DNA of 50,313 nucleotides from a bacterium (GCA_021781215.1 JAJXXC010000010.1:1-50313); one strand, 5' to 3'. Positions 27,007-41,995 are shown, counted from the first letter of the stretch. Translations and numbers: made by a program. The notes: a model not told the origin generated them from the sequence alone.

Positions 27007-27187
27007 TGTAACTCCTATTTAATTTATCTTGCTTCTAATACTATACATTATATAGTATAGACTAATCAAGTTTAAAAAAAGCTATGAATTATATATTTAT
27101 ATTTACCATTACATAGGTTGGTTTAACTTGTATTAATACCTATTATTTTAGATAATAATTATAAACAATTTGAGACGGGGGTAGTTT

Positions 27188-29833
27188 ATGGCTAAAACTA
27201 AACGTGTCTGGCTTTTCCGCGAAGGCAATGCAACCATGCGTGATCAGTTAGGTGGTAAGGGCGCTAACTTGGCCGAGATGACCAATATTGGCTTACCAGT
27301 ACCCCCGGGCTTAATCATTACTACCGATACTTGTAATCAATATATTAATTTAGGTGAGAAGATTCCCAATGGATTAATGGAAGAGGTAAAAATCGCCTTG
27401 TCTGATGTTGAGTTAGCAATTGGTAAGAAACTTGGAGATCCGTCCAATCCCCTGCTAGTTTCCGTAAGATCAGGGGCTAAATTTTCAATGCCTGGGATGA
27501 TGGATACGATTTTAAATCTGGGCTTAAATGATGAAATTACTGATGCGCTAGTTAAAATCACCAAAAACCCACGTTTTGTATATGATTCATACCGACGTTT
27601 TTTGATGATGTTTTCTGACGTAGCCTTGTCGACTCCAAGTAATAAGCTTTCTAAGCACCATTTCGAAGAACTGTTTAATAACCTAAAAAATGAATTGGGA
27701 GTTAAAGATGATCTAGAAGTTGATATTGATAACCTTAAAGAATTAATCAACCGCTACAAGGCCCATATTTTAAAGGAGACCGGTAAGGCATTCCCTCAGG
27801 ATGTTTATGAGCAACTTAAACTATCAATCGAGGCAGTATTTAAGTCATGGAATAATGAACGAGCTAAAGTATACCGTAAACGTGAAAAGATATCAGATAG
27901 TTTGGGCACGGCAGTAAGTATCCAGTCCATGGTTTTTGGCAATATGGGCAAGGATTCTGGAACCGGCGTAGCTTTTACTAGAAATCCAGCAACCGGAGAT
28001 AACAAAGTATTTGGTGAGTATTTAATGAACGCTCAAGGTGAGGACGTCGTTGCTGGAGTTAGAACACCAGTTCCAATATCAAAACTGGCTAGCAAAATCC
28101 CAGTTATCTATCAAGAATTTCAAAATATATGCAAAAAGCTCGAAACTCATTATAAAGATATGCAAGACATTGAGTTTACCATAGAGCATGGCAAACTCTA
28201 TATCTTACAGTGTCGCAACGGTAAACGTAGCGGAATCGCAGCAGTAAAGATTGCCGTTGATATGGTACATGAAAAACTTATAGATAAAACAGTAGCTCTA
28301 ATGAGAATAGATCCCGAACAATTAAATCAATGTCTGCATCCGATAATTGCACAAAGTAATAACTACACTGTGATTGCCACTGGCCTCCCTGCTGGTCCCG
28401 GTGCGGCAACTGGCTTAGCGGTTTTTGATGCTAATCGGGCAGCAAGACTGGGTAAGGGCGGCAAGGGTCAAAGAGTAATACTAATAAGAGCTGATACTAG
28501 TCCGGATGATCTCAAAGGTATGCTGGCATCTGAAGGTGTGCTGACTGAACGTGGTGGTATGACATCGCATGCTGCTCTAGTTGCTCGTGGCTTTGGTATT
28601 CCAACGATTGCGGGCTGCTCATCAATTAAAGTAGATATCGATAAACGTCAATTAACAATCAATAACATAACTATAAAAGAAGGTGATCCTATTTCTTTGA
28701 ACGGTTCGACCGGAGAAGTGATAGATGGTACCGTTGAAGTAGTAGACCCAGCGTTAACTAGTGAATTCACAGAATTGATGAATTGGGCTGATGCAGCACG
28801 TAAATTAGGCGTAAGAGCTAATGCAGATACTCCAGAAGACGTTTCATTGGCTATTAAATTTGGGGCGGAAGGTATAGGCCTTTGCCGTACCGAACATATG
28901 TTTTTTGCTAGTGACAGGCGCCCAATTGTTCAAGACATGATTTTAGCTAATACTGATGTACAGCGTAAGATTGAGCTAGACAAGCTATTAGTATTCCAAA
29001 GGAAAGATTTTAAGGACATTTTTATGACACTTAACGGTCGACCGGCCACGATTCGTTTAATTGACCCGCCCCTACATGAGTTTTTGCCTAATTTAGAAGT
29101 GCTGATAGAAGAAGTCGCTACAATTAAAGCCAAAGGTAATCACGACAAACAAAAGGAAGACTTATTGAATAAAGTTAGATCAATCCATGAGGTAAATCCG
29201 ATGATGGGTTTACGTGGCTGCCGTTTATCTATAGTATTTCCTGAAATTGTTGAAATGCAGACTAGAGCAATTTTCGAAGGAGCAATTGAAGCTATGAAAT
29301 CTGGAACTAAAGTTCGACCTGAGATTATGATTCCACTCGTAGGTGACGTTAATGAACTAAAGTGGGTAAGAATAAAATTAGAAAAAATCGCAAAACAAGT
29401 AATAGAATCATCCAGCTACAGCATTCCCTATGCATTTGGAACGATGATAGAAGTACCTCGTGCTGCACTAACAGCTAAAGCAATTGCTGAACATGCTGAT
29501 TTTTTTTCATTCGGAACTAACGATCTGACTCAGATGACTTTTGGTTTTTCGCGAGATGATTCAGATAGATTCTTTAAAACTTACTTAGATAAGAAAATTT
29601 TAGATGAAGACCCTTTTGAGACCATTGATCAGCTGGGTGTTGGTCAATTAATGAAGCTAGCTGTAGAGAACGGTCGTTCAGTCAATTCAAAATTGAAATT
29701 AGGTATATGTGGCGAGCACGGAGGTGAACCAAAGTCTATTACTTTTTGTCATAATATTGGCTTAGATTATGTTAGTTGTAGCCCCTATCGAGTGCCAATA
29801 GCTCGTCTAGCTGCTGCTCAAGCTAATCTTTAG
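27188..29833 (+). CDS. ppdK: Pyruvate, phosphate dikinase
   Basis: LGGKGANLAEM, VSVRSGA, SMPGMMDT, GGMTSHAA (phospho-His), GLCRTEHMF, SFGTNDLTQ, GICGEHGG. Confidence 0.97.
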   Translation: MAKTKRVWLFREGNATMRDQLGGKGANLAEMTNIGLPVPPGLIITTDTCNQYINLGEKIPNGLMEEVKIALSDVELAIGKKLGDPSNPLLVSVRSGAKFSMPGMMDTILNLGLNDEITDALVKITKNPRFVYDSYRRFLMMFSDVALSTPSNKLSKHHFEELFNNLKNELGVKDDLEVDIDNLKELINRYKAHILKETGKAFPQDVYEQLKLSIEAVFKSWNNERAKVYRKREKISDSLGTAVSIQSMVFGNMGKDSGTGVAFTRNPATGDNKVFGEYLMNAQGEDVVAGVRTPVPISKLASKIPVIYQEFQNICKKLETHYKDMQDIEFTIEHGKLYILQCRNGKRSGIAAVKIAVDMVHEKLIDKTVALMRIDPEQLNQCLHPIIAQSNNYTVIATGLPAGPGAATGLAVFDANRAARLGKGGKGQRVILIRADTSPDDLKGMLASEGVLTERGGMTSHAALVARGFGIPTIAGCSSIKVDIDKRQLTINNITIKEGDPISLNGSTGEVIDGTVEVVDPALTSEFTELMNWADAARKLGVRANADTPEDVSLAIKFGAEGIGLCRTEHMFFASDRRPIVQDMILANTDVQRKIELDKLLVFQRKDFKDIFMTLNGRPATIRLIDPPLHEFLPNLEVLIEEVATIKAKGNHDKQKEDLLNKVRSIHEVNPMMGLRGCRLSIVFPEIVEMQTRAIFEGAIEAMKSGTKVRPEIMIPLVGDVNELKWVRIKLEKIAKQVIESSSYSIPYAFGTMIEVPRAALTAKAIAEHADFFSFGTNDLTQMTFGFSRDDSDRFFKTYLDKKILDEDPFETIDQLGVGQLMKLAVENGRSVNSKLKLGICGEHGGEPKSITFCHNIGLDYVSCSPYRVPIARLAAAQANL

Positions 29834-30441
29834 GATAATTGTGCCGGCGTATTTGTATGCTCGATACGAATTTCAACACCACGATGGTTATTAGCTAATA
29901 TTGATTTGTCCATGATGTCAAAGCCAACAACTGTCGGTTTTGGTCCAGCAGATAATGGATATAGTTGTTGCCAATTGTTAGAGATTCCATAAGCTGCGCT
30001 TATACCCCTAACGACTAAATTGGCCTCATCAAAATAGACTATGCTTTCAACTACACCAGTTCTTTTACCTCCATCTGTAAATAAAAATCCAATAGCTTCA
30101 TTTTTGTTCTTAATACCAGCATAGTTTTTAATAGCGTTATTTAGTGTTGGTGAATAAACCACTGCTAAATCTTCTCCATTCTGGCTATTTGCTTGATTTG
30201 AAGATAATATTGCGATTTCGAGGTTTTTACCCCTGACTGGATGGACGATTTTAACTTTGTTTAGCTTTTCTCCTATAACTAATCCCCTTACTGAGCCCAT
30301 TCTATCAGCAGTATTTGTAGCTACTAATGTCGACTTATTACTAGCCTCAACGGACGTAGATAGTCCGAATATACTTATTGACCCAAGAGACAACACTGCT
30401 CCACTAGCAATAATTTTTTTAGATCTCTCAAAATGCATCAA
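29830..30441 (-). CDS. Hypothetical secreted protein
   Basis: Signal-peptide-like N-terminus (VEA|S); unopposed ORF. Confidence 0.65.
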   Translation of the reverse strand: MMHFERSKKIIASGAVLSLGSISIFGLSTSVEASNKSTLVATNTADRMGSVRGLVIGEKLNKVKIVHPVRGKNLEIAILSSNQANSQNGEDLAVVYSPTLNNAIKNYAGIKNKNEAIGFLFTDGGKRTGVVESIVYFDEANLVVRGISAAYGISNNWQQLYPLSAGPKPTVVGFDIMDKSILANNHRGVEIRIEHTNTPAQLS

Positions 30442-30592
30442 ATCATTTTACAGTCGTCATCTATTTTAGTCAATATTCTATAGAGTTGTTGTTATATTTT
30501 ATTTCTTATCTTTATATTTATAACTACCCAATATATTGCTCATGCCCTGCAACTCAGAGTCTATGTATAACGGAATAACAAGCCGTGATTTA

Positions 30593-30994
30593 TTAGCTCT
30601 TGAGGTAATTTTTCAAATTTTCAATAGCTGATTTGGTACTTTCTATGGATTTCTGTAAATCCTTATTGTCTGTGCTGCCATTTTTAATTGCTCTTAACAT
30701 TTCGTTAGCCTGTGATTTAACTTTATTTGCTCGAGTAGTAGCTCTATACAAATCATTTTTGATTGAAAGCTTGCCTTTATCTATTTTGACTTCTGCCTGT
30801 TTAATAATTTCAGTTAGTTCTTTGTATAAATTATTAGCTACTTCTTCAGCTTTTATTTGAGCTTTTTTTGAAGCATTAGATATATCTTTTCTAGTTTTTT
30901 CGCCTGATTGCTTTGCTGTTAGTAGTCCGGCTAAATAACCAATAGCAGAACCAATGACTGCGATTGTGAGTAAATTTTTATATGATTTTTTCAT
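30593..30994 (-). CDS. YtxH-like protein
   Basis: IGYLAGLLTAKQSGEKTRKDI matches the G-L-L-x-A-P-x-S-G-x-E-T-R pattern, followed by coiled coil. Confidence 0.8.
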   Translation of the reverse strand: MKKSYKNLLTIAVIGSAIGYLAGLLTAKQSGEKTRKDISNASKKAQIKAEEVANNLYKELTEIIKQAEVKIDKGKLSIKNDLYRATTRANKVKSQANEMLRAIKNGSTDNKDLQKSIESTKSAIENLKNYLKS

Positions 30995-31002
30995 AGATTT
31001 TC

Positions 31003-31263
31003 CTAATTAACTTTCTTATCCTTATTAAATTTTGATAAATATTTAAGAACACCGACTATTGGTACAAAACTTTTAATAATATTTGTAATTTTAGTTGTCT
31101 TATTAATTGCGTCAACGATTTCATTTCTTGTTCTTTTAATAGCCATTAATAAGCTTAGAAAATATACTAAAGTTACTATGCCCAGGACGAGAAAAATAGC
31201 TAAAAAGATACTTAGAATAATAAGCAATGCATGTTCAGTATTATTCAAGTTCATAATAACCAA
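31003..31263 (-). CDS. Small single-TM protein upstream of ytxH-like gene
   Basis: Long hydrophobic helix plus basic tail; 8 bp gap to the next gene. Confidence 0.7.
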   Translation of the reverse strand: MVIMNLNNTEHALLIILSIFLAIFLVLGIVTLVYFLSLLMAIKRTRNEIVDAINKTTKITNIIKSFVPIVGVLKYLSKFNKDKKVN

Positions 31264-31359
31264 AATATATCCTAATTCATATAATTATGCAATTCTTAAC
31301 AAGTTCGTAATCAAAGCAATGATGACATGCATGTTTTTATAGACAACTGAGTTTTTCTT

Positions 31360-31581
31360 TTAGTTAGTAGTGCCCATAACTACTTTTGTGGCAGTTTGTC
31401 CAATTCTCATTAAGAGTCTCATGTCATTTAAAGGCCTTGCATCTAGATAATCAGCAATATCTGATTCAGCTCGTCTACGATATGACGCTACAAGATTACG
31501 TTCTGAATAATGTCCAAAACTTGATACGCATCCATGTCCTACTGAGGTATAAACGTTATACCAAGGATTAGACAGCTTTGG
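31360..31581 (-). pseudogene. 5'-truncated gene fragment
   Basis: 74-codon open frame (PKLSNPWYNVY...VVMGTTN*) with no start or promoter at its 5' end, starting right after the upstream gene's stop. Confidence 0.45.
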
Positions 31582-31583
31582 TT

Positions 31584-32039
31584 CTATATATGGTTCTCAT
31601 CAACTATATCAACGGACAGATTAGGAGTTAGATGCACTACGGCTTGGTTAATAACGTCGTGAATCTTAAATTTACTACCATATCTTTCAAAGGTATATAG
31701 TTGGCCTCTAAATACCGGTTGGCCATTTTCTCTTCTAGTTATTGCATCTTCATAGATGTAGGTGCCAGAAGGTGGGAACGAAACCATAGCTTCGTCACCG
31801 TAAGTATTATGAATTTCTATTTTTAGAGGTCTACTGTCTTCTGGATTCTTGGTAGTTACTTCAAGTATTTGTCCAATAGGTGCGTTATATGAATTTACCA
31901 AAGGCCAAAGCATATCTATCATCGCCATGAATTCTTCTGAGCGCTCACTAGCTTCTGTGGCTAGCTGACCCAGTGATCTCATCGTCTCTAAGACTCTGAA
32001 TTCTAATTCGTGTGGGTTTTTAGTTACTATTTCTGACAT
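31584..32039 (-). CDS. Hypothetical protein
   Basis: 151 aa ORF with its own promoter-like upstream region. Confidence 0.75.
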   Translation of the reverse strand: MSEIVTKNPHELEFRVLETMRSLGQLATEASERSEEFMAMIDMLWPLVNSYNAPIGQILEVTTKNPEDSRPLKIEIHNTYGDEAMVSFPPSGTYIYEDAITRRENGQPVFRGQLYTFERYGSKFKIHDVINQAVVHLTPNLSVDIVDENHI

Positions 32040-32042
32040 ATA

Positions 32043-32181
32043 CGTATATTCAACTACTTTTTAGGTCGGTGAGCAAGCATTAGGGTTATATTTACATATA
32101 GTAATAATTTTTTCTTACTTTCTATTAGTCCAGACAACCTCGTGAACTGATTTCGCCTCGTTAAATCTTTTAAGAGTTGTA
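32043..32181 (-). repeat. Degenerate ~140 bp repeat, copy A (gene C-terminal remnant plus promoter)
   Basis: Aligns with 36954-37087; encodes TTLKRFNEAKSVHEVVWT versus TTIKKFNEAKSVDEIVWT. Confidence 0.8.
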
Positions 32182-32574
32182 AGGCAGATCCGGACCCATT
32201 GTTCCCCTTAGGGCAGCAAGCTGTGCTGCTGCATTTATTGATTTGTCAGCATCTGATCCTATGAGGTCGTCATGGAGGCGTGTTATTTGGGCTTTGAGTG
32301 AATCACTGTAGTCTCTAGCTACTGCATGAGCCCCTGCTTTAGCGAAGCCATCCGAAGCGCTGGTCTTTTTAGTACCTTTATCAACTCCACCTATGTCAGT
32401 ACTACCACTTTTTCTAGCGGTATAGGCCTGAGTTTGTGACGCCTCTTCTCGTAGTGTGGTATCTTTACCGTATGTTCTATCAAGGGCGTTATCTATGAAT
32501 GTACCAGCTCCGATTGGACCAAGTGCCCTCCACTTATTTGCAGAAGCGGGGAGTATGGTGTTTGAACTATTCCG
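32170..32574 (-). pseudogene. Start-less 134-codon open frame, in frame with the upstream gene's TAA
   Basis: RNSSNTILPASANKWRALGPIGAG...AAAQLAALRGTMGPDLPYNS*; visibly more GC-rich than its flanks. Confidence 0.6.
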
Positions 32575-32907
32575 TTATTTATTGATTCGTGCTGCAATCG
32601 CATATTGCGTAAAATATCTGTCCAAACTGCTTAGCTCGTTAGTTGATGGGCTTTCTTTGTATATAACTGTAAGAAATTGATCTCTTGATCTAAGAACTTC
32701 TTTTGACCTTATTGACTTAGCGTTAATCAGTTGGTCTATTGTCACATCGAACAAATCTAGAGCACGTATGATTGAGTTTTCCAAGTTCTGTTTATTATTT
32801 TGTTTTTTTGAATTAATTGCTCTACCAACTTCGCTAGAAATATTACCCATTTGATCGAAAATAGACATTTTTGACCATTTGGCTCTATCTACTTGATAAG
32901 TAATCAT
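32575..32907 (-). CDS. Helical hypothetical protein, partner of DUF5674-like gene
   Basis: WSKMSIFDQMGNISSEVGRA...RALDLFD...KEVLRSRD; ATGA overlap with upstream gene. Confidence 0.8.
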   Translation of the reverse strand: MITYQVDRAKWSKMSIFDQMGNISSEVGRAINSKKQNNKQNLENSIIRALDLFDVTIDQLINAKSIRSKEVLRSRDQFLTVIYKESPSTNELSSLDRYFTQYAIAARINK

Positions 32908-33245
32908 TTTGTAATAATTTCACTTACTATGTCTGTAATTTGATTCTGGATATTGGGGTTTTCTACACTTCTGGACATATTTTGTTGTCTAGGTCGGATA
33001 TTGATCATTGAGTCAAATTCAATAAAATTCTCAGTTCCATAATTTGCAGGATGTAGGTTAATTCCCCATAGACTATTTTGTTGTGATCCGTGTTCTAAAA
33101 GGTATTGTTCTCCGTCAACATGCATCTCAGCGTCAATAACCATAATTTTTTTGTCAATATCAACGACAGCTTTTACTATATTTCCATACATTTTGTCTGA
33201 TAATGTTTGAAGTTCGCTAACTGATATAGAATTCACTTGTTTCAT
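32904..33245 (-). CDS. DUF5674-like protein
   Basis: VKAVVDI, EMHVDGEQYLL, GSQQNSLWGIN, IEFDSMINIRPRQ; family recalled from motifs, not searched. Confidence 0.75.
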   Translation of the reverse strand: MKQVNSISVSELQTLSDKMYGNIVKAVVDIDKKIMVIDAEMHVDGEQYLLEHGSQQNSLWGINLHPANYGTENFIEFDSMINIRPRQQNMSRSVENPNIQNQITDIVSEIITK

Positions 33246-33394
33246 AAAATTATTATATATCTAAAATTCGAAAGCGCCCAATCCAAGCGAGGCTTAATAG
33301 CGGATGCTATTATGGTTATTCTCTTGGTGAAATATCAACTTTCAATAAAAACTCATATTATATTAAACAGTTACTAGAGTATTTAAATATTCCA

Positions 33395-33419
33395 TGGCTT
33401 AGGAATTGTTCTGGAATCA
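33395..33419 (-). repeat. 25 bp repeat shared with 37096-37120
   Basis: tggcttaggaattgttctggaatca versus tggctggggaatggttctggaatca, 22/25 identical. Confidence 0.8.
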
Positions 33420-33483
33420 TACTTTAGATCAAGAAGTAAAGTGTGATGTTAAGGAGATAAGACAACTCATAGATGGAGTGATG

Positions 33484-33505
33484 TCTGATGAAAATGGATT
33501 AGTGG
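33484..33505 (+). repeat. 22 bp long-range inverted repeat, left arm
   Basis: TCTGATGAAAATGGATTAGTGG; reverse complement at 35843-35864 with one mismatch. Confidence 0.8.
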
Positions 33506-33531
33506 GCTTATGAGATGCTAGCAGGTTTTTT

Positions 33532-34257
33532 TTATTCGACAATTTTAAGCAAACCATTTCGAAAATCAGCCAATACTGTAGGAAGATCACCTTCTAATTG
33601 ACTGAGTGATAATTTATCTAAAGGAAGCAGATCGTCATCAGTAGCTAATCTTGGGCTATTACTTATAATTTCGTCGCGGTTAAAAAATGCTTCTGCGTAC
33701 CCTCGTAACTTAGAGCCTCGCAGTTCTTCTCGATAGCCCGTAAGTATTTGTTCATCCGAATCATGGTCAGGACGGTAATAATCACATCTTTGGATCAAGG
33801 GAATAACCCACAGTTCTCCGGATTCTGCAATAAAAATTGGTTTAAAGAAGAAAGTTCTGGGCTCCCCCCCCTCATCGTATCCAAAAACTTTCTGAAAACG
33901 TTCTTCAACCAACCACCCCTTAACCGTACCTATATCAGTCGTGAATATTTCTGTACTATTGGCATGAAGCTTACGTTGCTTACGGTTCATGCCACTTAAA
34001 TCTTTGGGTCTTCGTCCAGCTTCAGTCAAAACCAGTGTTGTTGGTTTAATGCTGCCAGGTATTTCATTAACAATAGATTTTGCGTCTTCACGCATCTGAT
34101 TAGCAATAACTAACTGAAGCTCTTTCTTTTTTTTATCTGTTTCTATTTTTTCAGCAAATTCTCTTGCCGCATTTGCTTCTGCTTGAAGCCTAGCATTTTC
34201 TTCATTAGTTCGTAACTCATCTTGATGAGTTATAAATTGTTCCACAAATTTATTCAT
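33532..34257 (-). CDS. Hypothetical protein with N-terminal coiled coil
   Basis: 241 aa ORF; TGC-TATACT 7 nt before ATG. Confidence 0.8.
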   Translation of the reverse strand: MNKFVEQFITHQDELRTNEENARLQAEANAAREFAEKIETDKKKKELQLVIANQMREDAKSIVNEIPGSIKPTTLVLTEAGRRPKDLSGMNRKQRKLHANSTEIFTTDIGTVKGWLVEERFQKVFGYDEGGEPRTFFFKPIFIAESGELWVIPLIQRCDYYRPDHDSDEQILTGYREELRGSKLRGYAEAFFNRDEIISNSPRLATDDDLLPLDKLSLSQLEGDLPTVLADFRNGLLKIVE

Positions 34258-34307
34258 AAACTATAGTATAGCATCAATTCGGATTATAATCAATAGTTTT
34301 ATTCTGC

Positions 34308-34423
34308 GACTATACCATGACAGCAAGTAGACAGATTAGATAAGGACTTAGGATTATAGGGGTCTACAGTTAAGCGTTATACTCCCTAAATTAGGAAACC
34401 CTACTTGCTGTCATGGTATAGTC
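34308..34423. mobile_element. MITE-like element / IS end remnant
   Basis: Perfect 23 bp terminal inverted repeats GACTATACCATGACAGCAAGTAG (34308-34330 and 34401-34423) with a 70 bp interior; no clear target duplication. Confidence 0.65.
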
Positions 34424-34430
34424 TTCGTAC

Positions 34431-34784
34431 TTATTTATGTGAACCGGACAGGTATAATTGAGGTTCTCTCTTTACGTATATCCTACCTTTTACATCCCGA
34501 ACTCACTTATCAAGGTAGTCACTAGTATTCAGATTTTTTGTAATTCTAATATCAGATTGCATCACCCCATTCTATATCCTCAAATATATCTTTTTCACTT
34601 TTGTATCGTGATTCTTTACTTGCAAGTATTCCTACACCTAGGCTTAGACTAAGTTGTTGAGTTTTTATGTCAACATTATGAGGTTGCATCTCATGTAATC
34701 TATTGCCTTACCATCTATAAAAAATCTTCTATTTTTTCGAGTTCTAGCCCCTCCCAAAAAGACAAGCATAGCTTCCAACTGTGG
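34431..34784 (-). pseudogene. Degraded gene remnant
   Basis: Protein-like frames PQLEAMLVF..., HEMQPHNVDIK...WGDAI, SDIRITK...GSHK* joined by two frameshifts and an internal TGA. Confidence 0.45.
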
Positions 34785-35099
34785 TTATTCTTCTCTTGCT
34801 TCTTGCTGGCGATCCTTAACATACCCGCCCATTAAATATGAGTCAAAATCTGGTTCCGTAGGAATAGTCTGAGATATGGCAGTTTCGCCTAGAGATTTAA
34901 TGTGAGGGTTAGGAATATTAGTATATCCCATTCTACAACCCTCTATTGAATCTATTTTGATTCCCATGGACCCTTCTTTTGCCTCTCGGACCAACCTATC
35001 TAAATTATTCTGACGCCTAAGCTCACGGACTGACATTCTCTGCTGTTTAGCTCTGTGTTTTTCCTTAGCAGTTATCATCAAACGAGTGCTATCTTCCAT
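34785..35099 (-). CDS. Hypothetical protein
   Basis: 104 aa ORF; TATTAT 6 nt before ATG. Confidence 0.65.
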   Translation of the reverse strand: MEDSTRLMITAKEKHRAKQQRMSVRELRRQNNLDRLVREAKEGSMGIKIDSIEGCRMGYTNIPNPHIKSLGETAISQTIPTEPDFDSYLMGGYVKDRQQEAREE

Positions 35100-35290
35100 T
35101 TAGATATAATACAATATTACTTGAAAGCAGTACACTGATGGTTTATGCGACTCGACTACTTCACTTCGGTAGAAATTGATATTTATTTAGGATATTCGGT
35201 CTATAGATTGGCTAGAGGTTATAAAGTCTAACCAAGAGTAGGTTAGTAGCCCCAAGCAAGGCTATAAAAGGCTCAAAGTATATGTTTCTA

Positions 35291-35783
35291 TTACGGTGTA
35301 ACAACTAAAGGTTTGGTCGTTTCACCAAGTCCATTAATACTATTTTGGACAGTAACATTCTCTTCAACGTTAACAATCTCAATAGACTGGAGTATGCCCT
35401 CGACGTTAACTTCGTTAACGCAGGTGGATTCCTTAAAGTAGCTAAATTTAGGTGATTCTTGTTTGTCGGCAACTGTCTGTATAGCTTCATCTAATGGTAG
35501 TTGCGGGCTAATTCTATCACTTAATATTAAATCTAGTAGTTTAAGCCTAGGATTGTGATGTATAGATTTACGTAATAAATGACCACCCAATTCAGTTACA
35601 AGAGGGCAACGTAGACCTGTAAGTTTCATCTCCATAGCTAAACCTGGGGCTAATACTTACATTTGTATCATCTCTGACTCGACCTGAACAGGTTATGCCT
35701 AGCTCCGACGCGATTCTGTCTCGAATGCTAAAACTAATATCTTTATTACTTACACAATCATTACAATTTGATCTTTCGCCCAT
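35291..35783 (-). pseudogene. Probable frameshifted gene (ORFs 35592-35783 and 35291-35635)
   Basis: GGAGG RBS before 35783; 44 bp overlap of the two ORFs; CxxC and further Cys residues split across frames. Confidence 0.45.
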
Positions 35784-35842
35784 ACAATACCTCCGATTAA
35801 TTAGTTTAGTTATACATCTATTTTATTACCTGGACAAGCACT

Positions 35843-35864
35843 CCACTAATTCATTTTCATCAGA
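35843..35864 (-). repeat. 22 bp long-range inverted repeat, right arm
   Basis: CCACTAATTCATTTTCATCAGA, 21/22 complementary to 33484-33505. Confidence 0.8.
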
Positions 35865-35875
35865 TAATAGTTAAA

Positions 35876-36334
35876 TTACTCTTCGTATCCAACAACATCA
35901 TCGCTAAAAGTTTGATCGTAAAATGAGACTGTTTCAGGTGCAGTAACTTCTTTCAAGAACGACTCCCCTAATTCTGTTATCCCTAATGTACTATCTATCA
36001 ATCCGTTTGAATTGAGGTGGGCTATAGTTTCAATTATTTCTTGGTGGAGATGAGTAGTACTTTTGCTTTGGAAGGAACCACCAATTACGTGTCTATTCTC
36101 ATCCATCCAATCCCAGAGCTTATATCGAACTACGTCTTCAAGTGTCTTCTCAAGAATTGCAAGACCCCAGGTTCCTACCCCGCCCTCTATATGACTATTA
36201 ATTGTATCGATGGTGGCTAAGATGTAGCCTTTTCTCCCTGTATTTGGAAGGAGTTTTATACTGCCAACTGTCTGAACAAGCTCTATATGTTCCCGGGCAT
36301 CTTCTTCAAAATATTGAAAATGTTTCTGTTCCAT
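35876..36334 (-). CDS. Hypothetical protein, possible winged-helix-like C-terminus
   Basis: 152 aa ORF; LNSNGLI...ITELGESFL resembles a wHTH wing. Confidence 0.7.
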   Translation of the reverse strand: MEQKHFQYFEEDAREHIELVQTVGSIKLLPNTGRKGYILATIDTINSHIEGGVGTWGLAILEKTLEDVVRYKLWDWMDENRHVIGGSFQSKSTTHLHQEIIETIAHLNSNGLIDSTLGITELGESFLKEVTAPETVSFYDQTFSDDVVGYEE

Positions 36335-36431
36335 AGCATAATTTTTACTGTTTTTTAATATTTATGCAACCAATAGCGGTTTAGATCTTGATAATCTTGT
36401 ATTTAGAGGGTTATTTATTCGGGAAAACTAC

Positions 36432-36947
36432 TTAGTTACTAAAGCCCATACCAGCATTTGGTTCAAAATCTTTTCTGTTGTCTGATCTTTTCGCGACAAG
36501 AAGTTTGGTAAGCAAATCGGCCCGACTACGTATATTATTAACCTCATATCTGGAGTGCTCAATGTACCGACGACGTGAATATTCGAAACCTACTGTTGAG
36601 GCAATTCCCAATCCCAAGACTGGTACTGCAGCTACTGTACCGCTTTTGATCCATTCACCAGCACCACCTACCAAGGCAATCATCAAGACAGTTGCACCAA
36701 ACATCCTTGTTCGATTAGGAATCCGATGTGCTGCTTCTTCATAGTCTTGTTCGGCTCGATCTCTTATATCTTCAATCATTTTTTCGCTAATCTGTTCTAG
36801 GGTAATTGGCGTATCATCATGTTTTGGTTCCCCGATTATTTGTCTTGGAGTTGCCGAAAAGAGGTATTTGCCATCGGCAAAATATGAGGTGTCGGTTGTG
36901 ATTGACTCTCTAGTTTCTTTTGTGATAATTGGTAACCGTTCATCCAT
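36432..36947 (-). CDS. Hypothetical two-TM protein
   Basis: 171 aa ORF with two hydrophobic segments flanked by helical regions. Confidence 0.75.
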   Translation of the reverse strand: MDERLPIITKETRESITTDTSYFADGKYLFSATPRQIIGEPKHDDTPITLEQISEKMIEDIRDRAEQDYEEAAHRIPNRTRMFGATVLMIALVGGAGEWIKSGTVAAVPVLGLGIASTVGFEYSRRRYIEHSRYEVNNIRSRADLLTKLLVAKRSDNRKDFEPNAGMGFSN

Positions 36948-36953
36948 ATATAG

Positions 36954-37120
36954 GGTATATTAACTACTTTTTGGTATCGTATGCAAGCATTATCGTTTTA
37001 TAAGTAATAACTTTTTCAGGCTCTAGAGCAACAGTCCAAACAATCTCATCAACTGATTTTGCTTCATTAAATTTCTTTATGGTTGTAGTTAGAATTGGCT
37101 GGGGAATGGTTCTGGAATCA
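36954..37120 (-). repeat. Degenerate repeat, copy B (gene C-terminal remnant plus promoter)
   Basis: Minus frame DSRTIPQPILTTTIKKFNEAKSVDEIVWTVALEPEKVITYK; its parts match 33395-33419 and 32043-32181. Confidence 0.8.
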
Positions 37121-37133
37121 AATTATTTGATTT

Positions 37134-37547
37134 TTATAACTTATTACGACATTCTGTAGAAAGTGTTACAAGAGGTTTTACTGTCGAAAATCGTGTTGCA
37201 GGTTCATCAACAATCGAACCAAATACTAATTCCTGCATTGGTCCATAGTCAGGTTTCACTATTATTTTCAAATCATTTGGTTTTGCCCTAACAAATCTAC
37301 CTTCAACAATAACTTCACTATCCTCATATGAAGATACGGTCACAGTTGCCCCTGCAAGTTGCATAATATCACAGCCAATGTTATGTAGCTTATACTTTAA
37401 TAGATCTCTGTCCGTTTGAGTTAAGTGCATCTCCCTATTTCGTATCAAAAACGCCTTATGGGCGGCATCTAAAAGTAAACTTAGCCACATAACACCGTTC
37501 TGATCAGAAGACTCTAAATCAGGTAAAAGCTCATTACTCGTGTTCAT
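37134..37547 (-). CDS. Hypothetical protein
   Basis: 137 aa ORF; TATAAT 7 nt before ATG. Confidence 0.75.
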   Translation of the reverse strand: MNTSNELLPDLESSDQNGVMWLSLLLDAAHKAFLIRNREMHLTQTDRDLLKYKLHNIGCDIMQLAGATVTVSSYEDSEVIVEGRFVRAKPNDLKIIVKPDYGPMQELVFGSIVDEPATRFSTVKPLVTLSTECRNKL

Positions 37548-37585
37548 ATTTAATATTATATAATTATATCTGATGATGCCAATAC

Positions 37586-37609
37586 TGGCTGGCTACAAAG
37601 GGCTTGAAC
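37586..37609 (-). repeat. Degenerate copy of tRNA-Gln 3' end (att-like)
   Basis: GTTCAAGCCCTTTGTAGCCAGCCA versus tRNA GTTCGAGTCCCTTCTTCCCAGCCA, 18/24 ungapped. Confidence 0.7.
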
Positions 37610-37854
37610 TACAAATCTTTGTAAGTCTTTTCATTTCGGAGATCAATTTTAATAATAAAGATCTTGTCATTATTTTTAGAATAAACTATCCTTATCCGAT
37701 TTTTTCTTACTCGAAATAGATTACTATGCCCTTTTAGTTTTTTAATGTCTAACCCTAGGGTGTCGTCCATTGTAACCCTAAGGATAAGTAACTTAACTAA
37801 ATTACGCTCTTGTTGGGATAGTTTTGCTAATAACTTTTTAATTTTATCAGCCAT
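37609..37854 (-). CDS. Type II TA toxin, RelE/ParE family
   Basis: DIKKLKGHSNLFRVRKNRIRIVY...RNEKTY; basic 81 aa protein downstream of an antitoxin. Confidence 0.85.
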   Translation of the reverse strand: MADKIKKLLAKLSQQERNLVKLLILRVTMDDTLGLDIKKLKGHSNLFRVRKNRIRIVYSKNNDKIFIIKIDLRNEKTYKDL

Positions 37855-37863
37855 AACAATATT

Positions 37864-38097
37864 TTAATCTAAGGCCTTCAATATATCATTTGCAGATATG
37901 CCACCATCAGCTAATTCAGTAAAATCTATAATGGTCGTCCATTGACCCTCATCAGCAATAGGATTTATCTGGAATATTGGTTTTGAGCGTTTGACTACAG
38001 TAAAGCTTTGACCGTTATTAATAGCATCAATATATTTTGGAAATTGATCTCTTAATTGCTTAAGACTTATAGTATTTGCTTGATCTAATGTATTCAT
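37864..38097 (-). CDS. Type II TA antitoxin, Phd/YefM family
   Basis: TISLKQLRDQFPKYIDAINNGQSFTVVKRSKPIFQINP with acidic C-terminus. Confidence 0.88.
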   Translation of the reverse strand: MNTLDQANTISLKQLRDQFPKYIDAINNGQSFTVVKRSKPIFQINPIADEGQWTTIIDFTELADGGISANDILKALD

Positions 38098-38100
38098 ACT

Positions 38101-38132
38101 TAAAGTTTAACTAAAGATGAACTTTATGTCAA
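38101..38132 (-). promoter_or_regulatory. Sigma70 promoter and operator of the TA operon
   Basis: TTGACA-17-TAAACT-6-ATG; TAAAGTT...AACTTTA inverted repeat (38101-38126) overlapping it. Confidence 0.75.
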
Positions 38133-38141
38133 TAGCTTTAA

Positions 38142-38164
38142 TGGCTGAGCACGTTGGTCTAGAA
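38142..38164 (-). repeat. Second degenerate tRNA-Gln 3'-end-like copy
   Basis: TTCTAGACCAACGTGCTCAGCCA, 15/23 ungapped to the tRNA end; directly follows a stop codon in the same register as the 37586 copy. Confidence 0.5.
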
Positions 38165-38707
38165 TTATTTTGCTTTGCCACCTGATTTGATCTCGATTCT
38201 CGGACCATTATGAGTACCTCTTGGTGTTTGTTCAGTTTTTGGGATATAAGTGTCTATGTCAGTAATCCATATTCTTGCTACGTCATGCCATCTCATTATC
38301 TGTCCGAATTTTTTATGCCCTAAATCTTTCCTAATGGCTAGAATTAAATCACCAAAGTACTCCATGCTATTAATATTCCAGCTTGTGTCACCAGCATCTG
38401 CTTGGCTCTGATCATATTTGTACAAGTGTTGCATGTAATCTCCGGTGCATTTTACTACTTCATTAGAGGCAAAAGTTAGGATTTTCGGAAAATAGTTTTT
38501 TAATGTTTCTACGATATTTTCATTATCTAACTTGTTTGATCCACTATATGTGTCATATAAGAACTTTACATAACCTGAATAAAGAGCTTGTTTTTTGTTT
38601 TTAAGATCCGCTCGTAAGCCTGCGTTTTTAGTATATGACTGTGTAAGGAGTATACTTAATAACCCTGACAACCCTGTTAGCAAAACTATCCAAATTGAAG
38701 TGTTCAT
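38165..38707 (-). CDS. Hypothetical protein with N-terminal TM helix
   Basis: AGGAG RBS; N-terminal hydrophobic helix; LILAIRKDLG motif. Confidence 0.8.
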   Translation of the reverse strand: MNTSIWIVLLTGLSGLLSILLTQSYTKNAGLRADLKNKKQALYSGYVKFLYDTYSGSNKLDNENIVETLKNYFPKILTFASNEVVKCTGDYMQHLYKYDQSQADAGDTSWNINSMEYFGDLILAIRKDLGHKKFGQIMRWHDVARIWITDIDTYIPKTEQTPRGTHNGPRIEIKSGGKAK

Positions 38708-38719
38708 ACTATACGTCTC

Positions 38720-39277
38720 CTATGTAAACAATCTTTTAATTATTTCGGGCAACGCTGCGCCTGCGATTGCTGCGAAAGTAGGGTTTGTAGTAATTGATCT
38801 AAGCTCGTTTAAAATCTTATTTTTTTCTGGTCCATCTTGCAAAGCTTCTTCGGCTTGGCTTATTATTGCCAACATTAGCTCCCCAACTTGAATATTGTTT
38901 GCGGGGCTATTATCACCGAAGGTAACCGGTCCATTAAATGTTGTTGTTCCAAACTTCGAACTTAGGGTTGCTTTTGCTTCTTCTTTTTTCTGAATAATGA
39001 GTCTGGATTGTGCTTGAGTATCATCGGGATTACGGTTTTGAAGCTCTTTGAGTAACTCTTGGACCTTTGATATAGCTTCAACATGTATTTGCTGCCCATG
39101 CTTATCGGACATTATCATTTGCCCAAACCAGAGTGCATTGTGTAGAACTTGGCTTGTAGCTTCGCCAAATGGTGCTACAGCCGCTTTAACGTCGTTCTCC
39201 CACATGGCTACTGAAGGTGAATCATATTTTTGATTCTTTAGCTTTTCACCTTTATCAATAAGTTCTTGTAAATTCAT
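38720..39277 (-). CDS. Hypothetical protein with G/N-rich RHIM-like linker
   Basis: TATAAT 6 nt before ATG at 39277 (start moved from 39304); FNGPVTFGDNSPANNIQVG. Confidence 0.8.
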   Translation of the reverse strand: MNLQELIDKGEKLKNQKYDSPSVAMWENDVKAAVAPFGEATSQVLHNALWFGQMIMSDKHGQQIHVEAISKVQELLKELQNRNPDDTQAQSRLIIQKKEEAKATLSSKFGTTTFNGPVTFGDNSPANNIQVGELMLAIISQAEEALQDGPEKNKILNELRSITTNPTFAAIAGAALPEIIKRLFT

Positions 39278-39319
39278 ATAATTATTATAGAACATTACGG
39301 TCACCTTTGGTGATCATCT

Positions 39320-39393
39320 TGGCTGGGAAGAAGGGACTCGAACCCCTGCTGCCGGGACCAAAACCCGGTGTCCTACCACTAGACGACTTCCCA
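39320..39393 (-). tRNA. tRNA-Gln(TTG), CCA encoded
   Basis: TGGGAAG/CTTCCCA acceptor stem, AGTGGT D-loop, CCGGG-TTTTGGT-CCCGG anticodon arm, TTCGAGT T-loop, GCCA end; 74 nt. Confidence 0.97.
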
Positions 39394-39503
39394 ATAACTT
39401 AGGTAATTATACAAAACTTCTACCCCTTTAGTCCAGTACACCTTAAATGTATGTATTCCAGCACAAGCATTACCTGTTGCATTTTATATAATTAGACTAC
39501 ATA

Positions 39504-40586
39504 ATGACACCTATGGAAGATCAAGGTAGAGATTTAACAATATCTAATAGAACAATATTTAGAATTATCATCATTCTGTTAATTACCTACTTACTACTTA
39601 AATTATTTACAAAATCATATTATATATTTGAATTAATTTTTCTATCATTCATTTTTGCAATAGCTCTTAACCCGGTTGTTAGTAAAATATCGCACAGTCT
39701 TAGAATCAAAAGTCGAGGAATAGCCACAGGAATTGCTTATATTGTAGTCATTGGCATAATTAGCTACATATTAATTTTAGTTACTCCCTCACTGGCAGAG
39801 CAAACAATTAATTACGCAAAGAACTTACCGACTACAATTTCTGATCTTCAAAACCCTAACACCGGTGCTGGAAGATTTGTTAATAAGTACCATCTAAATA
39901 ACCAAGTAAATAGTATTCAGGAATATGCAAAATCTCATACTACTAATCTGCATATACCGGTTTTTTCTACCGCATCAAAGATAGGAAATGTTTTAGAAGC
40001 GATTGTAATTGTTTTAGTTTTAACCTTTATGATGCTGGTTGAGGGACCAAAATGGTTGAATTCATACATGAAGATTAGCTTTGGAAAAAGAGATTGGCAT
40101 GCACGCTTAGCTAAAAAAATGAATCGAATAGTATCAGGATATATTAACGGACAAATTTTATTGGCTCTAATTGGGGCAGCGTTTAGCTTTGTAACTCTTG
40201 CTATAGCCAGCTCCATCTTGAATGTTCAAATTAATACCCTTGCCTTAACGGTAATTATATTTTTTACAGGACTAATTCCACTATTTGGTCATATTATTGG
40301 CACTATAGTCGTTGTTATTGCCTGTCTTTTTGTATCATGGCCACTAGCTTTAATTATGGCAATTGCACTAACATTATATCTTCAAATCGAAAACATTACC
40401 TTTCAGCCGTATATACAAGCTAAATATAATGAGATTACACCATTATTAGTATTTATATCAGCTTTAATCGGTATTGCGGCTGGAGGCTTATTTGGAGCCT
40501 TTATTGCTATACCATTTGCTGGATGTATTAAAGTTGCGATTGAAGAATTTCTAGTTCAAAGAAAACTAATAGATACGAAGAGCTAG
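39504..40586 (+). CDS. AI-2E family transporter
   Basis: AIALNPVV, GYINGQI, LIPLFG, QIEN...QP, GLFGAFIAIP. Confidence 0.9.
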   Translation: MTPMEDQGRDLTISNRTIFRIIIILLITYLLLKLFTKSYYIFELIFLSFIFAIALNPVVSKISHSLRIKSRGIATGIAYIVVIGIISYILILVTPSLAEQTINYAKNLPTTISDLQNPNTGAGRFVNKYHLNNQVNSIQEYAKSHTTNLHIPVFSTASKIGNVLEAIVIVLVLTFMMLVEGPKWLNSYMKISFGKRDWHARLAKKMNRIVSGYINGQILLALIGAAFSFVTLAIASSILNVQINTLALTVIIFFTGLIPLFGHIIGTIVVVIACLFVSWPLALIMAIALTLYLQIENITFQPYIQAKYNEITPLLVFISALIGIAAGGLFGAFIAIPFAGCIKVAIEEFLVQRKLIDTKS

Positions 40587-41995
40587 ACTCGATACCAAAT
40601 CTGATCGTTTTCTGTATCATTTATGCCAATTCCAGTGGATGTCAACTGATCCCTAATAGCATCACTGTTTTTCCAATCTCTTTCATTTCTTGATGATAGT
40701 CGACTCTCTAAAAGAGTTTTTTGGTTAGTTGTTATGTCGTCGACATTAGAAAGATTAAGCCCTAATAAATTATCCAAAAATTCAAGGAAACTAATAAAAT
40801 CTGGTAACTGAACTTTGTTTATTCGGCCATTACCGATACTATTGATAAATATGCTTAGTTCAGCCAAGGCATTAGCTGAATTTAAATCATCATACATTGA
40901 TGCTTCGATTAAAGATTGGACTTTATTAAAATCTAAGGTCTTAGATTGATTATTCTCATCTACTTGGAATTTTAATGAAGCAAAGTTTATATAGGATAAC
41001 AATCTACGGCTAGAAGCTTCTAATTTCTCGAAGCTAAAATCTGTCTGATTACGATAATTACCCTGCAGTACAAGTAATCTAAAGGATAGAGGATTCTTTG
41101 TTCGTTTCAATATGTCATCAAGGGTATAGAAATTATTCAAGGATTTGCTCATTTTTTGGTTATCGACTAGTAGATGTTCATTATGAAAGAATAATTTAGC
41201 CAGGTATTGGCTGTCTTTATCGGTTGTACTTTGAGCTATTTCATTCTCGTGGTGAGGAAATCTTAAATCAATGCCACCTGTGTGTATATCAAAGGGCTGT
41301 CCAAGTAGGCTAGTGCTCATAGCCGAGCATTCTATGTGCCATCCCGGTCTCCCTGGATAATTATTACCGTCTATTGGAAAATCCCAATAAGGTTCGCCTG
41401 TTTTCACGAATTTCCATAGAGCAAAATCATGAATTGTTTGTTTATCATATTCATCATTATTGATTCTAGACCTAGAAGAATCTGCAGATGAAAAATCTAG
41501 ATGAGATAATCTACCATATTGTTTCCCACTTTTTCTATATTTATCAATCGAGAAATATATTCCATCATCAGATATGTATGCGAAATCACTATCAAGTAAT
41601 TTATTAATCAGAGCTTGCATTAAGTCAATCGATTCAGTGGCTTTTATAAAAGTATAATTAGCAGTATCAATATTAAGTGATGCGATGTCATCCTTGAATT
41701 TAGCTTCGAAATCACCAGTTAATTTTAATAATGCATCCATGGGGCTTAAATCAGGATATAATTCATGGCTTCGTTTTATAGTTTTATCGTCTACATCCGT
41801 GATATTAATAACGTGTTTTACCCGAGAGTTAGTTCTAATTACTCGTGCTAGAGTATCAGCATATATAAATGAGCTTAGATTTCCAATATGGACATTGCTA
41901 TACACTGTTGGGCCACAAGTATAAATACCAACCCGATTGTCATTAACACAGGTAAATTGTTCTGTTTTATTAGTTAGGCTATTAAATATATTCAT
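40583..41995 (-). CDS. cysS: Cysteinyl-tRNA synthetase
   Basis: CGPTVY, HIGN, NITDVDDK, DFALWK, GRPGWHIECSAM, HHENE, KMSKS. Confidence 0.97.
   Translation of the reverse strand: MNIFNSLTNKTEQFTCVNDNRVGIYTCGPTVYSNVHIGNLSSFIYADTLARVIRTNSRVKHVINITDVDDKTIKRSHELYPDLSPMDALLKLTGDFEAKFKDDIASLNIDTANYTFIKATESIDLMQALINKLLDSDFAYISDDGIYFSIDKYRKSGKQYGRLSHLDFSSADSSRSRINNDEYDKQTIHDFALWKFVKTGEPYWDFPIDGNNYPGRPGWHIECSAMSTSLLGQPFDIHTGGIDLRFPHHENEIAQSTTDKDSQYLAKLFFHNEHLLVDNQKMSKSLNNFYTLDDILKRTKNPLSFRLLVLQGNYRNQTDFSFEKLEASSRRLLSYINFASLKFQVDENNQSKTLDFNKVQSLIEASMYDDLNSANALAELSIFINSIGNGRINKVQLPDFISFLEFLDNLLGLNLSNVDDITTNQKTLLESRLSSRNERDWKNSDAIRDQLTSTGIGINDTENDQIWYRV

Follow-up and report, generated by a model that had tools for sequence, protein, structure and literature searches.

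A tRNA-Gln-anchored array of small gene cassettes without integrase genes in a Candidatus Saccharibacteria genome

Described systems of stacked elements and the tRNA-Gln(TTG) locus

Among the described systems compared here, the closest to the locus of this study, an array of small gene cassettes directly downstream of a tRNA-Gln(TTG) gene in a genome of Candidatus Saccharibacteria, is that of the tandem ssrA islands of Dehalococcoides. These islands are stacked downstream of a small RNA gene and insert in its T-loop; each is delimited by a direct repeat, about 20 bp long, of the gene's 3' end, with a short conserved motif just upstream. A serine recombinase of about 540 amino acids (aa) is encoded on the reverse strand beside attL, and some of the stacked islands have no integration module, for which reason a cis-mobilizable nature was proposed for them (PMC3146451). 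The tycheposon islands of Prochlorococcus lie beside tRNAs in a streamlined genome, with partial tRNA copies as the sole separators of the elements; newcomers push the older elements inward, and the islands contain degenerate remnants and scattered partial tRNAs (bioRxiv 10.1101/2020.12.28.424599). The DNA analysed here, referred to as the window, is the whole contig C10 (JAJXXC010000010.1, 50,313 nucleotides (nt)) of the assembly GCA_021781215.1, which comprises 716,862 bases in 10 contigs and is designated G000; further G numbers stand for other genomes, L numbers for loci and C numbers for contigs of G000.

Comparable arrangements are known from other bacteria. The cis-mobilizable elements (CIMEs) found in streptococci at tRNA-Lys or fda are flanked by att sites, have no integrase or transfer genes, are stacked beside an integrase-bearing element at the 3' end of a gene and are presumably moved by the enzymes of this neighbour; they are regarded as decayed integrative and conjugative or integrative and mobilizable elements. 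In staphylococci, large serine recombinases insert staphylococcal cassette chromosome (SCC) elements at the 3' end of rlmH (orfX), where direct repeats of this 3' end separate the units, some of which, the ccr-less pseudo-SCC elements, have no recombinase. Integrons hold small co-oriented cassettes, rich in toxin-antitoxin (TA) pairs, at one attachment point, and their recombinase is encoded outside the cassettes.

ARAGORN and Rfam agree on a tRNA-Gln(TTG) gene at 39320-39393 on the minus strand, the sole tRNA of the window according to ARAGORN, which an earlier reading of the window made from the DNA letters alone (the sequence-only reading) had taken as the anchor of an array. Scoring 62 bits with the Rfam tRNA model, the gene is intact; it is the only match in an Rfam scan of 31000-39600, in which neither tRNA-like nor other RNA was detected at the sites themselves, and the first cassette begins directly past its CCA. 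In the approximately 8 kb downstream (31360-39319), all 14 open reading frames (ORFs) of at least 100 aa are on the minus strand, as is the tRNA and as the sequence-only reading had stated; the longest ORF of the plus strand has 98 aa and is nested within genes of the minus strand.

The explanation that we favour, with somewhat more confidence than doubt, is that integrase-less mini-cassettes have accreted in this region at the 3' end of tRNA-Gln(TTG) and form an array built by an enzyme from outside it. The cassettes would be 0.5-1.2 kb in size and consist of one or two genes, their own promoter or a ribosome-binding trailer, and a recombination site with short conserved arms which mimics the last approximately 25 nt of a tRNA, from T-loop to CCA. 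According to this scheme, a circular cassette would recombine site-specifically with the tRNA 3' end; the tRNA would be regenerated and the displaced 3' end would stay behind the cassette. Repeated events would stack co-oriented cassettes with tRNA-3'-like sites between them, and these sites would then decay. The enzyme would be supplied in trans by a large serine recombinase of a family that is linked to tRNA 3' ends.

Several traits of tandem tRNA islands are found at the locus, namely an intact tRNA at the start of the array, repeats of the tRNA 3' end, which are degenerate here and clear in relatives, and units without recombinase. Compared with the Dehalococcoides islands, the target is not tmRNA but ordinary tRNAs of at least eight identities, and the units have 0.5-1.2 kb and one or two genes whereas one Dehalococcoides island has about 12 kb; moreover, most units have no integration gene, and the recombinase ORF itself enters the tRNA 3' end. 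The reverse-strand large serine recombinase at attL, a trait of the Dehalococcoides islands, is absent from the window but present at C2:92734-94308. The tycheposon islands resemble the array in their stacked elements separated by partial tRNAs, but they are defined by their own integrase and replication genes, whereas family searches of the window array found no integrase, replication or packaging hallmark genes, the units are far smaller and the associated enzyme family is that of the large serine recombinases. CIMEs are alike in that units without integrase are stacked at a gene 3' end; here, however, no conjugative element is evident and the same tiny cassette recurs at different tRNAs. 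The array differs from SCC in target gene, host phylum and unit size and is not a member of this group, since the scores with the CcrB and XisF models remain far under the respective cut-offs. With integrons, it shares the co-oriented array of small cassettes, the TA pairs and the recombinase outside the cassettes. Yet the system is not an integron, and the integron likeness proposed by the sequence-only reading fails in the strict sense, because there is no intI and the cassettes carry their own promoters: the sole tyrosine recombinase, an Xer-like one, is encoded on another contig, a tRNA and not attI serves as anchor, predicted -35/-10 pairs precede cassette genes, and the sites appear to align to tRNA 3' ends and not to attC. 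Full-text literature searches, which did not cover supplements, returned no description of tRNA-targeted islands or cassettes in Saccharibacteria or Patescibacteria.

Recurrence and exchange of the cassettes in other Saccharibacteria

Four units of the array recur just past different tRNAs, co-oriented with them, in other Saccharibacteria: the 191-aa gene of cassette 1 (38720-39295), the 180-aa gene of cassette 2 (38165-38707), the Phd/RelE pair of cassette 3 (37609-38135) and the DUF5674 gene (32904-33245; E 1.4e-29) with its 110-aa partner (32575-32907), all on the minus strand. Their homologues follow tRNA-Gln(TTG), Gln(CTG), Leu, Ser, Asn, Ile, Lys or Gly genes. The 180-aa protein has an N-terminal membrane helix and is AbiN-like, with matches to phrog_8187 and to the PADLOC AbiN model (E 8.4e-9). 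All three close homologues of its gene (64-68% identity) lie just past a tRNA, 27 nt past tRNA-Gln(TTG), 35 nt past tRNA-Gln(CTG) and 209 nt past tRNA-Leu(TAG), respectively, and two distant ones (27-28% identity) lie away from tRNAs; metagenome contigs contributed three distant matches only. For the 191-aa gene, of unknown function, the single homologue found (G375) stands directly after tRNA-Ser(GGA), and the alignment runs from 39344 of the window, inside the tRNA tail, to 38736. Protein scans of viral contigs gave no match for either of the two genes.

The sequence-only reading had treated 39319-38165 as a single two-gene module. The segment ends at site 1, as stated, but it looks like two cassettes. 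The trailer directly past the CCA (39292-39319, minus strand), a sequence conserved after several tRNAs and containing CAAAGGTGACC, has a second copy, leader B (38705-38735, minus strand), so that a trailer of about 30 nt is duplicated at the junction of cassettes 1 and 2 (38736/38735). Because leader B is homologous to the trailer of locus L022 up to the base directly past the CCA, the 191-aa gene looks as if it had been inserted between the tRNA and the 180-aa cassette with duplication of the trailer and without a tRNA-like core, and the 'two-gene unit' is therefore probably two cassettes.

Cassette 3 consists of a promoter (38104-38132), a Phd-like antitoxin gene (37864-38097; E 7.5e-4, below the Pfam cut-off) and a RelE-like toxin gene (37609-37854; PHROG match, E 1e-6). 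Its homology to eight other genomes begins at the promoter and ends at the stop codon. A DNA search of 400 genomes matched the unit in 12 places in 11 genomes, of which eight were examined, and four of these eight lie within arrays flanked by tRNA-3'-like sites. In G133, 9 nt separate tRNA-Gln(TTG) from the start of the pair, past which comes a sequence resembling a tRNA-Ser 3' end; tRNA-3'-like sites flank the unit in G224, G395 and G091, and in all four genomes such a site is found no more than 60 nt past the homologous RelE gene. When nine promoter regions were aligned, site 1 of the window shared its columns with the sites of G224, G395 and G091 and with the genuine 3' end of tRNA-Gln in G133, and these five sites end 7-11 nt ahead of the -35 box.

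The DUF5674 gene and its 110-aa partner are paired in all 20 loci examined out of about 45 matches. A co-oriented tRNA (Ile, Asn, Lys twice, Gly) stands within 1.5 kb upstream in five of the 20, compared to about 4% estimated from tRNA density, the two tRNA-Lys cases possibly not being independent. An exact 25-nt copy of the tRNA-Asn 3' end is located 61 nt upstream of the pair in G106, and copies of the tRNA-Gly 3' end, one of them near-exact over 23 nt with one base missing, precede it in G136. A site of G228 homologous to site 4 of the window precedes the spacer that in G224, G395 and G091 comes after tRNA-Gln. The array of G224 contains five sites (8.8-19 bits) on the same strand within 2.9 kb past its tRNA-Gln and none on the opposite strand there, and the arrays of relatives also carry VapBC-like, RHH/ParE and HTH-Fic cassettes.

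The genomes G224, G395 and G091 represent three families. Their TA cassette, flanks included, shows 91-94% identity over 617-662 nt, the post-tRNA spacer 81-85% and a third cassette 69%, and the 20-kb loci align inside the arrays only, except for two matches of 27-36 nt. An additional segment of 1.06 kb in G224 holds a VapBC-like pair and a small ORF, and a 41-nt site that is single in G395 stands on both sides of this extra cassette; this is one gain or loss with breakpoints in the site. Of 41 genomes searched, 39 contain a homologue of the transporter gene that neighbours the tRNA, and tRNA-Gln(TTG) lies within about 4.3 kb of it in five of six loci examined. In G003 and G004, two species of one genus, homology stops at the last tRNA bases and returns about 5 kb further on, and the genes between differ. 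These two loci (L001 and L002, 1860-2840) also have an alpha/beta-hydrolase gene between transporter gene and tRNA-Gln that is absent from the window. The same-genus genome G001, which is fragmented here, yielded the DUF5674 pair only, with unrelated flanks. Taken from the alignments, these comparisons support the view that discrete units are exchanged horizontally and have a tie to the 3' ends of tRNAs. In the contigs of four runs (X1-X4), loose ends with other sequence joining were seen at 39271, 38808, 32093 and 34129, one of them 49 nt past the tRNA; related strains with other cassettes could be their source.

Such exchange might also proceed by homologous recombination, with the tRNA and the repeated tRNA-like boundaries as anchors and without a dedicated recombinase. 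The 'minimal mobile elements' of naturally transformable bacteria are an example of similar homology-driven exchange. The boundaries of 25-52 nt that are repeated in the arrays and common to several genomes would suit such a process, as would the homology of G003 and G004 that ends exactly at the tRNA 3' end with the next 5 kb differing, and the occurrence of arrays in genomes without an integrase. We nevertheless consider this explanation improbable: the same cassettes stand past Gln, Leu, Ser, Asn, Gly, Ile and Lys tRNAs, whose 3' ends are alike in little beyond the T-loop, the site behind the TA cassette of G133 resembles a tRNA-Ser end and not the end of the local tRNA-Gln, and the arms outside the core are conserved between unrelated cassettes.

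The tRNA-3'-like sites and the supply of a recombinase

Site 1 (38142-38183, minus strand) comprises an arm, AGGTGGCA, at 38176-38183, 11 nt and the core TTCTAG-N12-AGCCA (38142-38164), which starts directly after a TAA stop codon; the core of site 2 (37586-37610, minus strand), TTCAAG-N12-AGCCA (37586-37608), starts directly after a TAG. Their identities to the tRNA-Gln 3' end, 15/23 at 38142 and 18/24 at 37586, had been given correctly by the sequence-only reading. Its weaker candidates exist as well: the one base shorter N11 forms of site 3 (TTCCAG-N11-AGCCA, 37096-37117, minus strand) and site 4 (33395-33416) are 88% alike over 25 nt, and 35209 has 14/25 identities. The latter is the end of a conserved non-coding stretch (35209-35280, minus strand) that is 78% alike to G011 over 72 nt, follows a stop codon in G011 and ends in a site-like 25-mer (35209-35233). 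Site 4 closes a 95-nt stretch (33383-33477, minus strand) that is 85% alike to G228.

In order to judge these resemblances, the sites were ranked among all positions of G000. By plain identity, 37586 is the sole non-tRNA position of the genome with at least 18/24, and it scores 12.5 bits with a generic matrix made from the 42 tRNA ends of G000 itself; resemblance to the tRNA is by itself convincing for this site only. A second matrix was built from 17 inter-cassette sites, all from other genomes, and applied with a threshold of 10 bits. With this relatives' matrix, 38142, 37586 and 35209 (11.4 bits for the 25-mer) rank 10th, 16th and 27th among non-tRNA positions. Three of the 44 genome matches at or above the threshold fall on the tRNA strand of the array (7960 nt), where 0.24 are expected (P 0.002), and none on its opposite strand; the enrichment that the sequence-only reading had proposed to look for with a position weight matrix is thus present. 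The chance reading, in which the motifs are accidental and the region holds ordinary co-oriented accessory genes, can draw on the facts that 15/23 identity is ordinary, with 54 such sites in the genome, that the 3' words from AGCCA to CCCAGCCA are not enriched in the array, and that the pattern TTCNAG-N12-AGCCA, of whose six matches in 1.43 Mb (both strands) three lie in the array, was defined post hoc. It is disfavoured and the least credible of the explanations, given the P value of the independent matrix, the positional homology of the window sites to those of relatives, an arm motif common to site 1 and a tRNA-Asn array, and the recurrence of the units beside tRNAs elsewhere.

The generic matrix's top non-tRNA match, C2:9403, was rejected as a cassette site, being the 3' exon of an intron-split tRNA. 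C2:9403-9700, L052 and L060 are tRNA genes with long anticodon-loop insertions that were not called by ARAGORN, and their 3' exons mimic orphan tRNA tails; the insertion of L060 (G282) contains a 141-aa ORF with cysteine and histidine motifs like those of homing endonucleases. L052 and L060 had been considered as integrase-less insertions between a tRNA and a recombinase gene, and this was likewise rejected, the 'fragment' being the 3' exon of an intron-split tRNA-Met.

Outside the tRNA-like core, unrelated cassettes have short conserved arms in common. The upstream arm AATTTAGGTGG.A.AAAT stands just before the core in the tRNA-Asn arrays of both G106 and contig C8 of G000, and G091 has a related one. 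The combination AGGTGG[CT]A-N11-TTC occurs twice in G000, in the C8 tRNA-Asn array and at site 1 of the window. The trailer with the 11-mer CAAAGGNGACC also occurs twice, each time 10 nt past a tRNA (Asn on C8, Gln in the window); it is found after tRNA-Gln(TTG) in L022, too, and in looser form after tRNA-Gln(CTG) on C1 and tRNA-Ser in G375. The arm-plus-core pattern has three matches in large viral contigs. The tRNA 3' end is AGCCA in four of the 42 tRNAs of G000, tRNA-Gln(TTG) among them, and all four carry features of the kind discussed here: the window array, the C8 tRNA-Asn array, the C2 island described below, and, on C1, the trailer together with two top-ranked sites. The second array, C8:17967-19500 (L046 968-2500), begins with tRNA-Asn(GTT), the trailer, a degenerate tRNA-like site and a Fic/DOC gene with a 79-aa partner, and continues with a 22.9-bit tRNA-Asn-like site with the AATTTAGGTGG arm and an 81-aa gene. 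On C1 (L013), a second copy of tRNA-Gln(CTG) at 8548-8621 has trailer-like sequence; the sites at 2380 and 2903, among the ten best non-tRNA matches, lie on the tRNA strand, 5.6-6.2 kb downstream, beside a Fic/DOC pair.

Pfam searches found no recombinase among the ORFs of the window or in the relatives' arrays examined (15 ORFs, those of the G003 and G004 loci, and a further 18 ORFs), and PF00589 and PF00239 have no match on contig C10. Outside the array, where the sequence-only reading had suggested looking for such an enzyme, G000 encodes one tyrosine recombinase and one serine recombinase. The tyrosine recombinase, on C6, is Xer-like: it scores 253 bits with XerD/XerC and above the XerA cut-off, and 146 bits with the integron integrase model (cut-off 265). 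That this host enzyme inserts the units is a very remote prospect. Some elements do exploit Xer at dif, Acinetobacter plasmids carry small dif-flanked modules, and the Xer enzyme is the sole tyrosine- or serine-family recombinase found in G224, G133 and G159 and one of two in G000; on the other hand, no dif-like paired binding sites were noticed, in work that included no search aimed at them, the sites are mimics of tRNA 3' ends, and there is a serine recombinase family with a tie to exactly such sites.

The serine recombinase of G000 has 525 aa and is encoded at C2:92734-94308 beside tRNA-Gln(CTG), with which its gene is convergent, the last 11 coding bases overlapping the tRNA. The match of the enzyme to CcrB is weak (E 4e-8). 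It belongs to an island of about 8 kb, the far end of which repeats TCCCAGCCA..AGAGAT. This island (C2:92670-100790; L012 2671-10790) also contains a KAP-family NTPase, a DUF4352 protein and a weak match, below the cut-off, to a nucleotidyltransferase domain. The family has matches in 147 of 301 genomes of the order, a tally that includes three unpublished genomes (G037, G262 and G280), and in 19 of 20 loci the recombinase gene ends in or beside a tRNA 3' end. In detail, the end of the ORF overlaps a called tRNA (Met, Leu, Pro) by 13-58 nt, mostly about 22 nt, in 15 loci, and a tRNA-3'-like sequence of at least 26 bits in four (two 3' exons of intron-split tRNA-Met and two at contig ends); in the remaining one, a tRNA-3'-like sequence is about 155 nt away.

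Islands of this sort lead to a different account of the array, in which larger recombinase-bearing islands integrated serially at the tRNA and deletions left short pieces between the att repeats, the small units never having been mobile. Recombinase-bearing tRNA islands are present in G000 and common in the order, the array contains a gene fragment and repeated fragments, arrays occur in genomes without a serine recombinase match, and the quality of the window sites is poor. All this agrees with such decay. It agrees less well with the finding that the same small cassette, with the same boundaries and arms, is present in several families at 91-94% identity, that one and the same gene stands directly past three different tRNAs, that the extra cassette of G224 is flanked by a clean site duplication, and that no recombinase fragment was found on contig C10. 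We regard this account as unlikely; it is only weakened by these points, because integrase-bearing islands of the same kind exist in G000 and the order.

Further observations weigh against the accretion of small cassettes that we favour. The window sites are degenerate and worn, four of the five proposed sites score below 3 bits with the generic matrix, and no tRNA-like site was found at the junction of cassettes 1 and 2. The fragment of a large membrane-protein gene in the array is what the decay of bigger elements would lead one to expect. Four of the eight examined Phd/RelE loci have no tRNA-3'-like flanks and are not near a tRNA, and 15 of the 20 DUF5674 loci are not near a tRNA either. 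The 400-genome DNA search scored two candidates per genome, and most of the compared relatives are metagenome-assembled genomes. G224, G133 and G159 have cassettes but no serine recombinase match, with one Xer-like tyrosine recombinase each; there is therefore no resident enzyme of the serine kind that could serve their arrays, and a resident serine recombinase cannot be invoked for them. As to gain and loss, which the sequence-only reading had placed at the motif, the G224 cassette is the one case; in the contigs of the four runs, all from one study, no module gain or loss, joint or circular junction was seen over 27000-43000, and the order was the same wherever it was bridged.

At the level of sequence comparison, what we could demonstrate is that the cassettes are discrete and exchanged, linked to several tRNAs and bounded by tRNA-3'-like sites with conserved arms, that the arrays encode no recombinase and that the serine recombinase family is tied to tRNA 3' ends. 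We infer in addition that they insert as small units and are not left-overs, and that a recombinase acts on them in trans; most likely, this enzyme would be a serine recombinase of the tRNA-linked family. The interpretation put forward by the sequence-only reading thus stands with respect to discrete exchanged units at tRNA 3' ends and to arrays without recombinase. The chronological order that it had read into the array is unsupported, because the sites do not become steadily poorer the further they lie from the tRNA, either in the window by the relatives' matrix or in the array of G224.

Remaining parts of the window and significance

Past site 2, the array continues on the minus strand with cassette 4 (37134-37582), which consists of a promoter (37555-37582), at 11/12 the best promoter match of the region, and a 137-aa gene without a homologue among 350 other genomes of the order. 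Site 3 is followed by a repeated segment of about 125 nt (36962-37087) and by genes for a 171-aa membrane protein of unknown function (36432-36947) and a 152-aa protein with a weak winged-helix match below the cut-off (35876-36334). Further on, there are genes of unknown function for 104 aa (34785-35099), 241 aa (33532-34257) and 151 aa (31584-32039). Nine of the scanned proteins of the window had no family match at all.

Among the promoters, which according to the sequence-only reading precede most genes in compact form, the -35/-10 pairs before the TA pair, the 137-aa gene and the DUF5674 gene are strong, and those before the remaining genes are weaker. The -10 boxes at 38104-38097, 37555-37547 and 39284-39277 sit 6-7 nt ahead of start codons, which suggests leaderless transcripts for several cassettes. 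The accumulation of debris far from the tRNA could be confirmed in part. The segment 32182-32560 (minus strand) is an internal gene fragment without start codon, 70% identical at the nucleotide level to C6:136433-138652; its parent is a paralogue of the 739-aa membrane protein encoded there. Next to it lies the second copy of the repeated segment (32052-32181, minus strand), which is 75-78% alike to the one at 36962-37087; both copies are located upstream of a promoter and gene. The non-coding gap between the 104-aa and 241-aa genes contains a perfect inverted repeat of 23 nt (34308-34330 and 34401-34423) whose arms are 70 nt apart; the contigs of run X1 break there, and 44 nt at one arm are 86% alike to G162. 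How far the array extends distally could not be established by comparison with G003, since none of the genes past its variable region has neighbours in the window. Beyond the array, the window carries at 27188-29833 on the plus strand a gene for an 881-aa pyruvate phosphate dikinase-like protein without a full-length homologue in 40 relatives (best partial match E 2e-17), which may also have been acquired.

In Saccharibacteria and their relatives, which live on other bacteria with very small genomes of their own, the gain and loss of genes is poorly known. More broadly, though we hold this tentatively and with rather more doubt than confidence, the arrays may represent an integron-like system made of other parts, in which promoter-bearing cassettes of 0.5-1.2 kb with a 25-nt mimic of a tRNA 3' end and short arms are captured at many tRNA 3' ends and moved among them by tRNA-specific large serine recombinases supplied in trans, from a resident island or a passing element; these minimal, host-dependent bacteria would thereby share a pool of TA genes, defence genes and genes of unknown function. 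This would extend the scheme of serine-recombinase islands, known from the tmRNA gene of Dehalococcoides, to ordinary tRNAs and very small units. If cassettes are indeed moved in trans, this would explain much of the strain-level variation in Saccharibacteria and mark the place where defence and TA genes are stored, and the compact paired sites, a tRNA end and a cassette site, together with the serine recombinases would be useful for the genetics of these organisms, which are difficult to manipulate.

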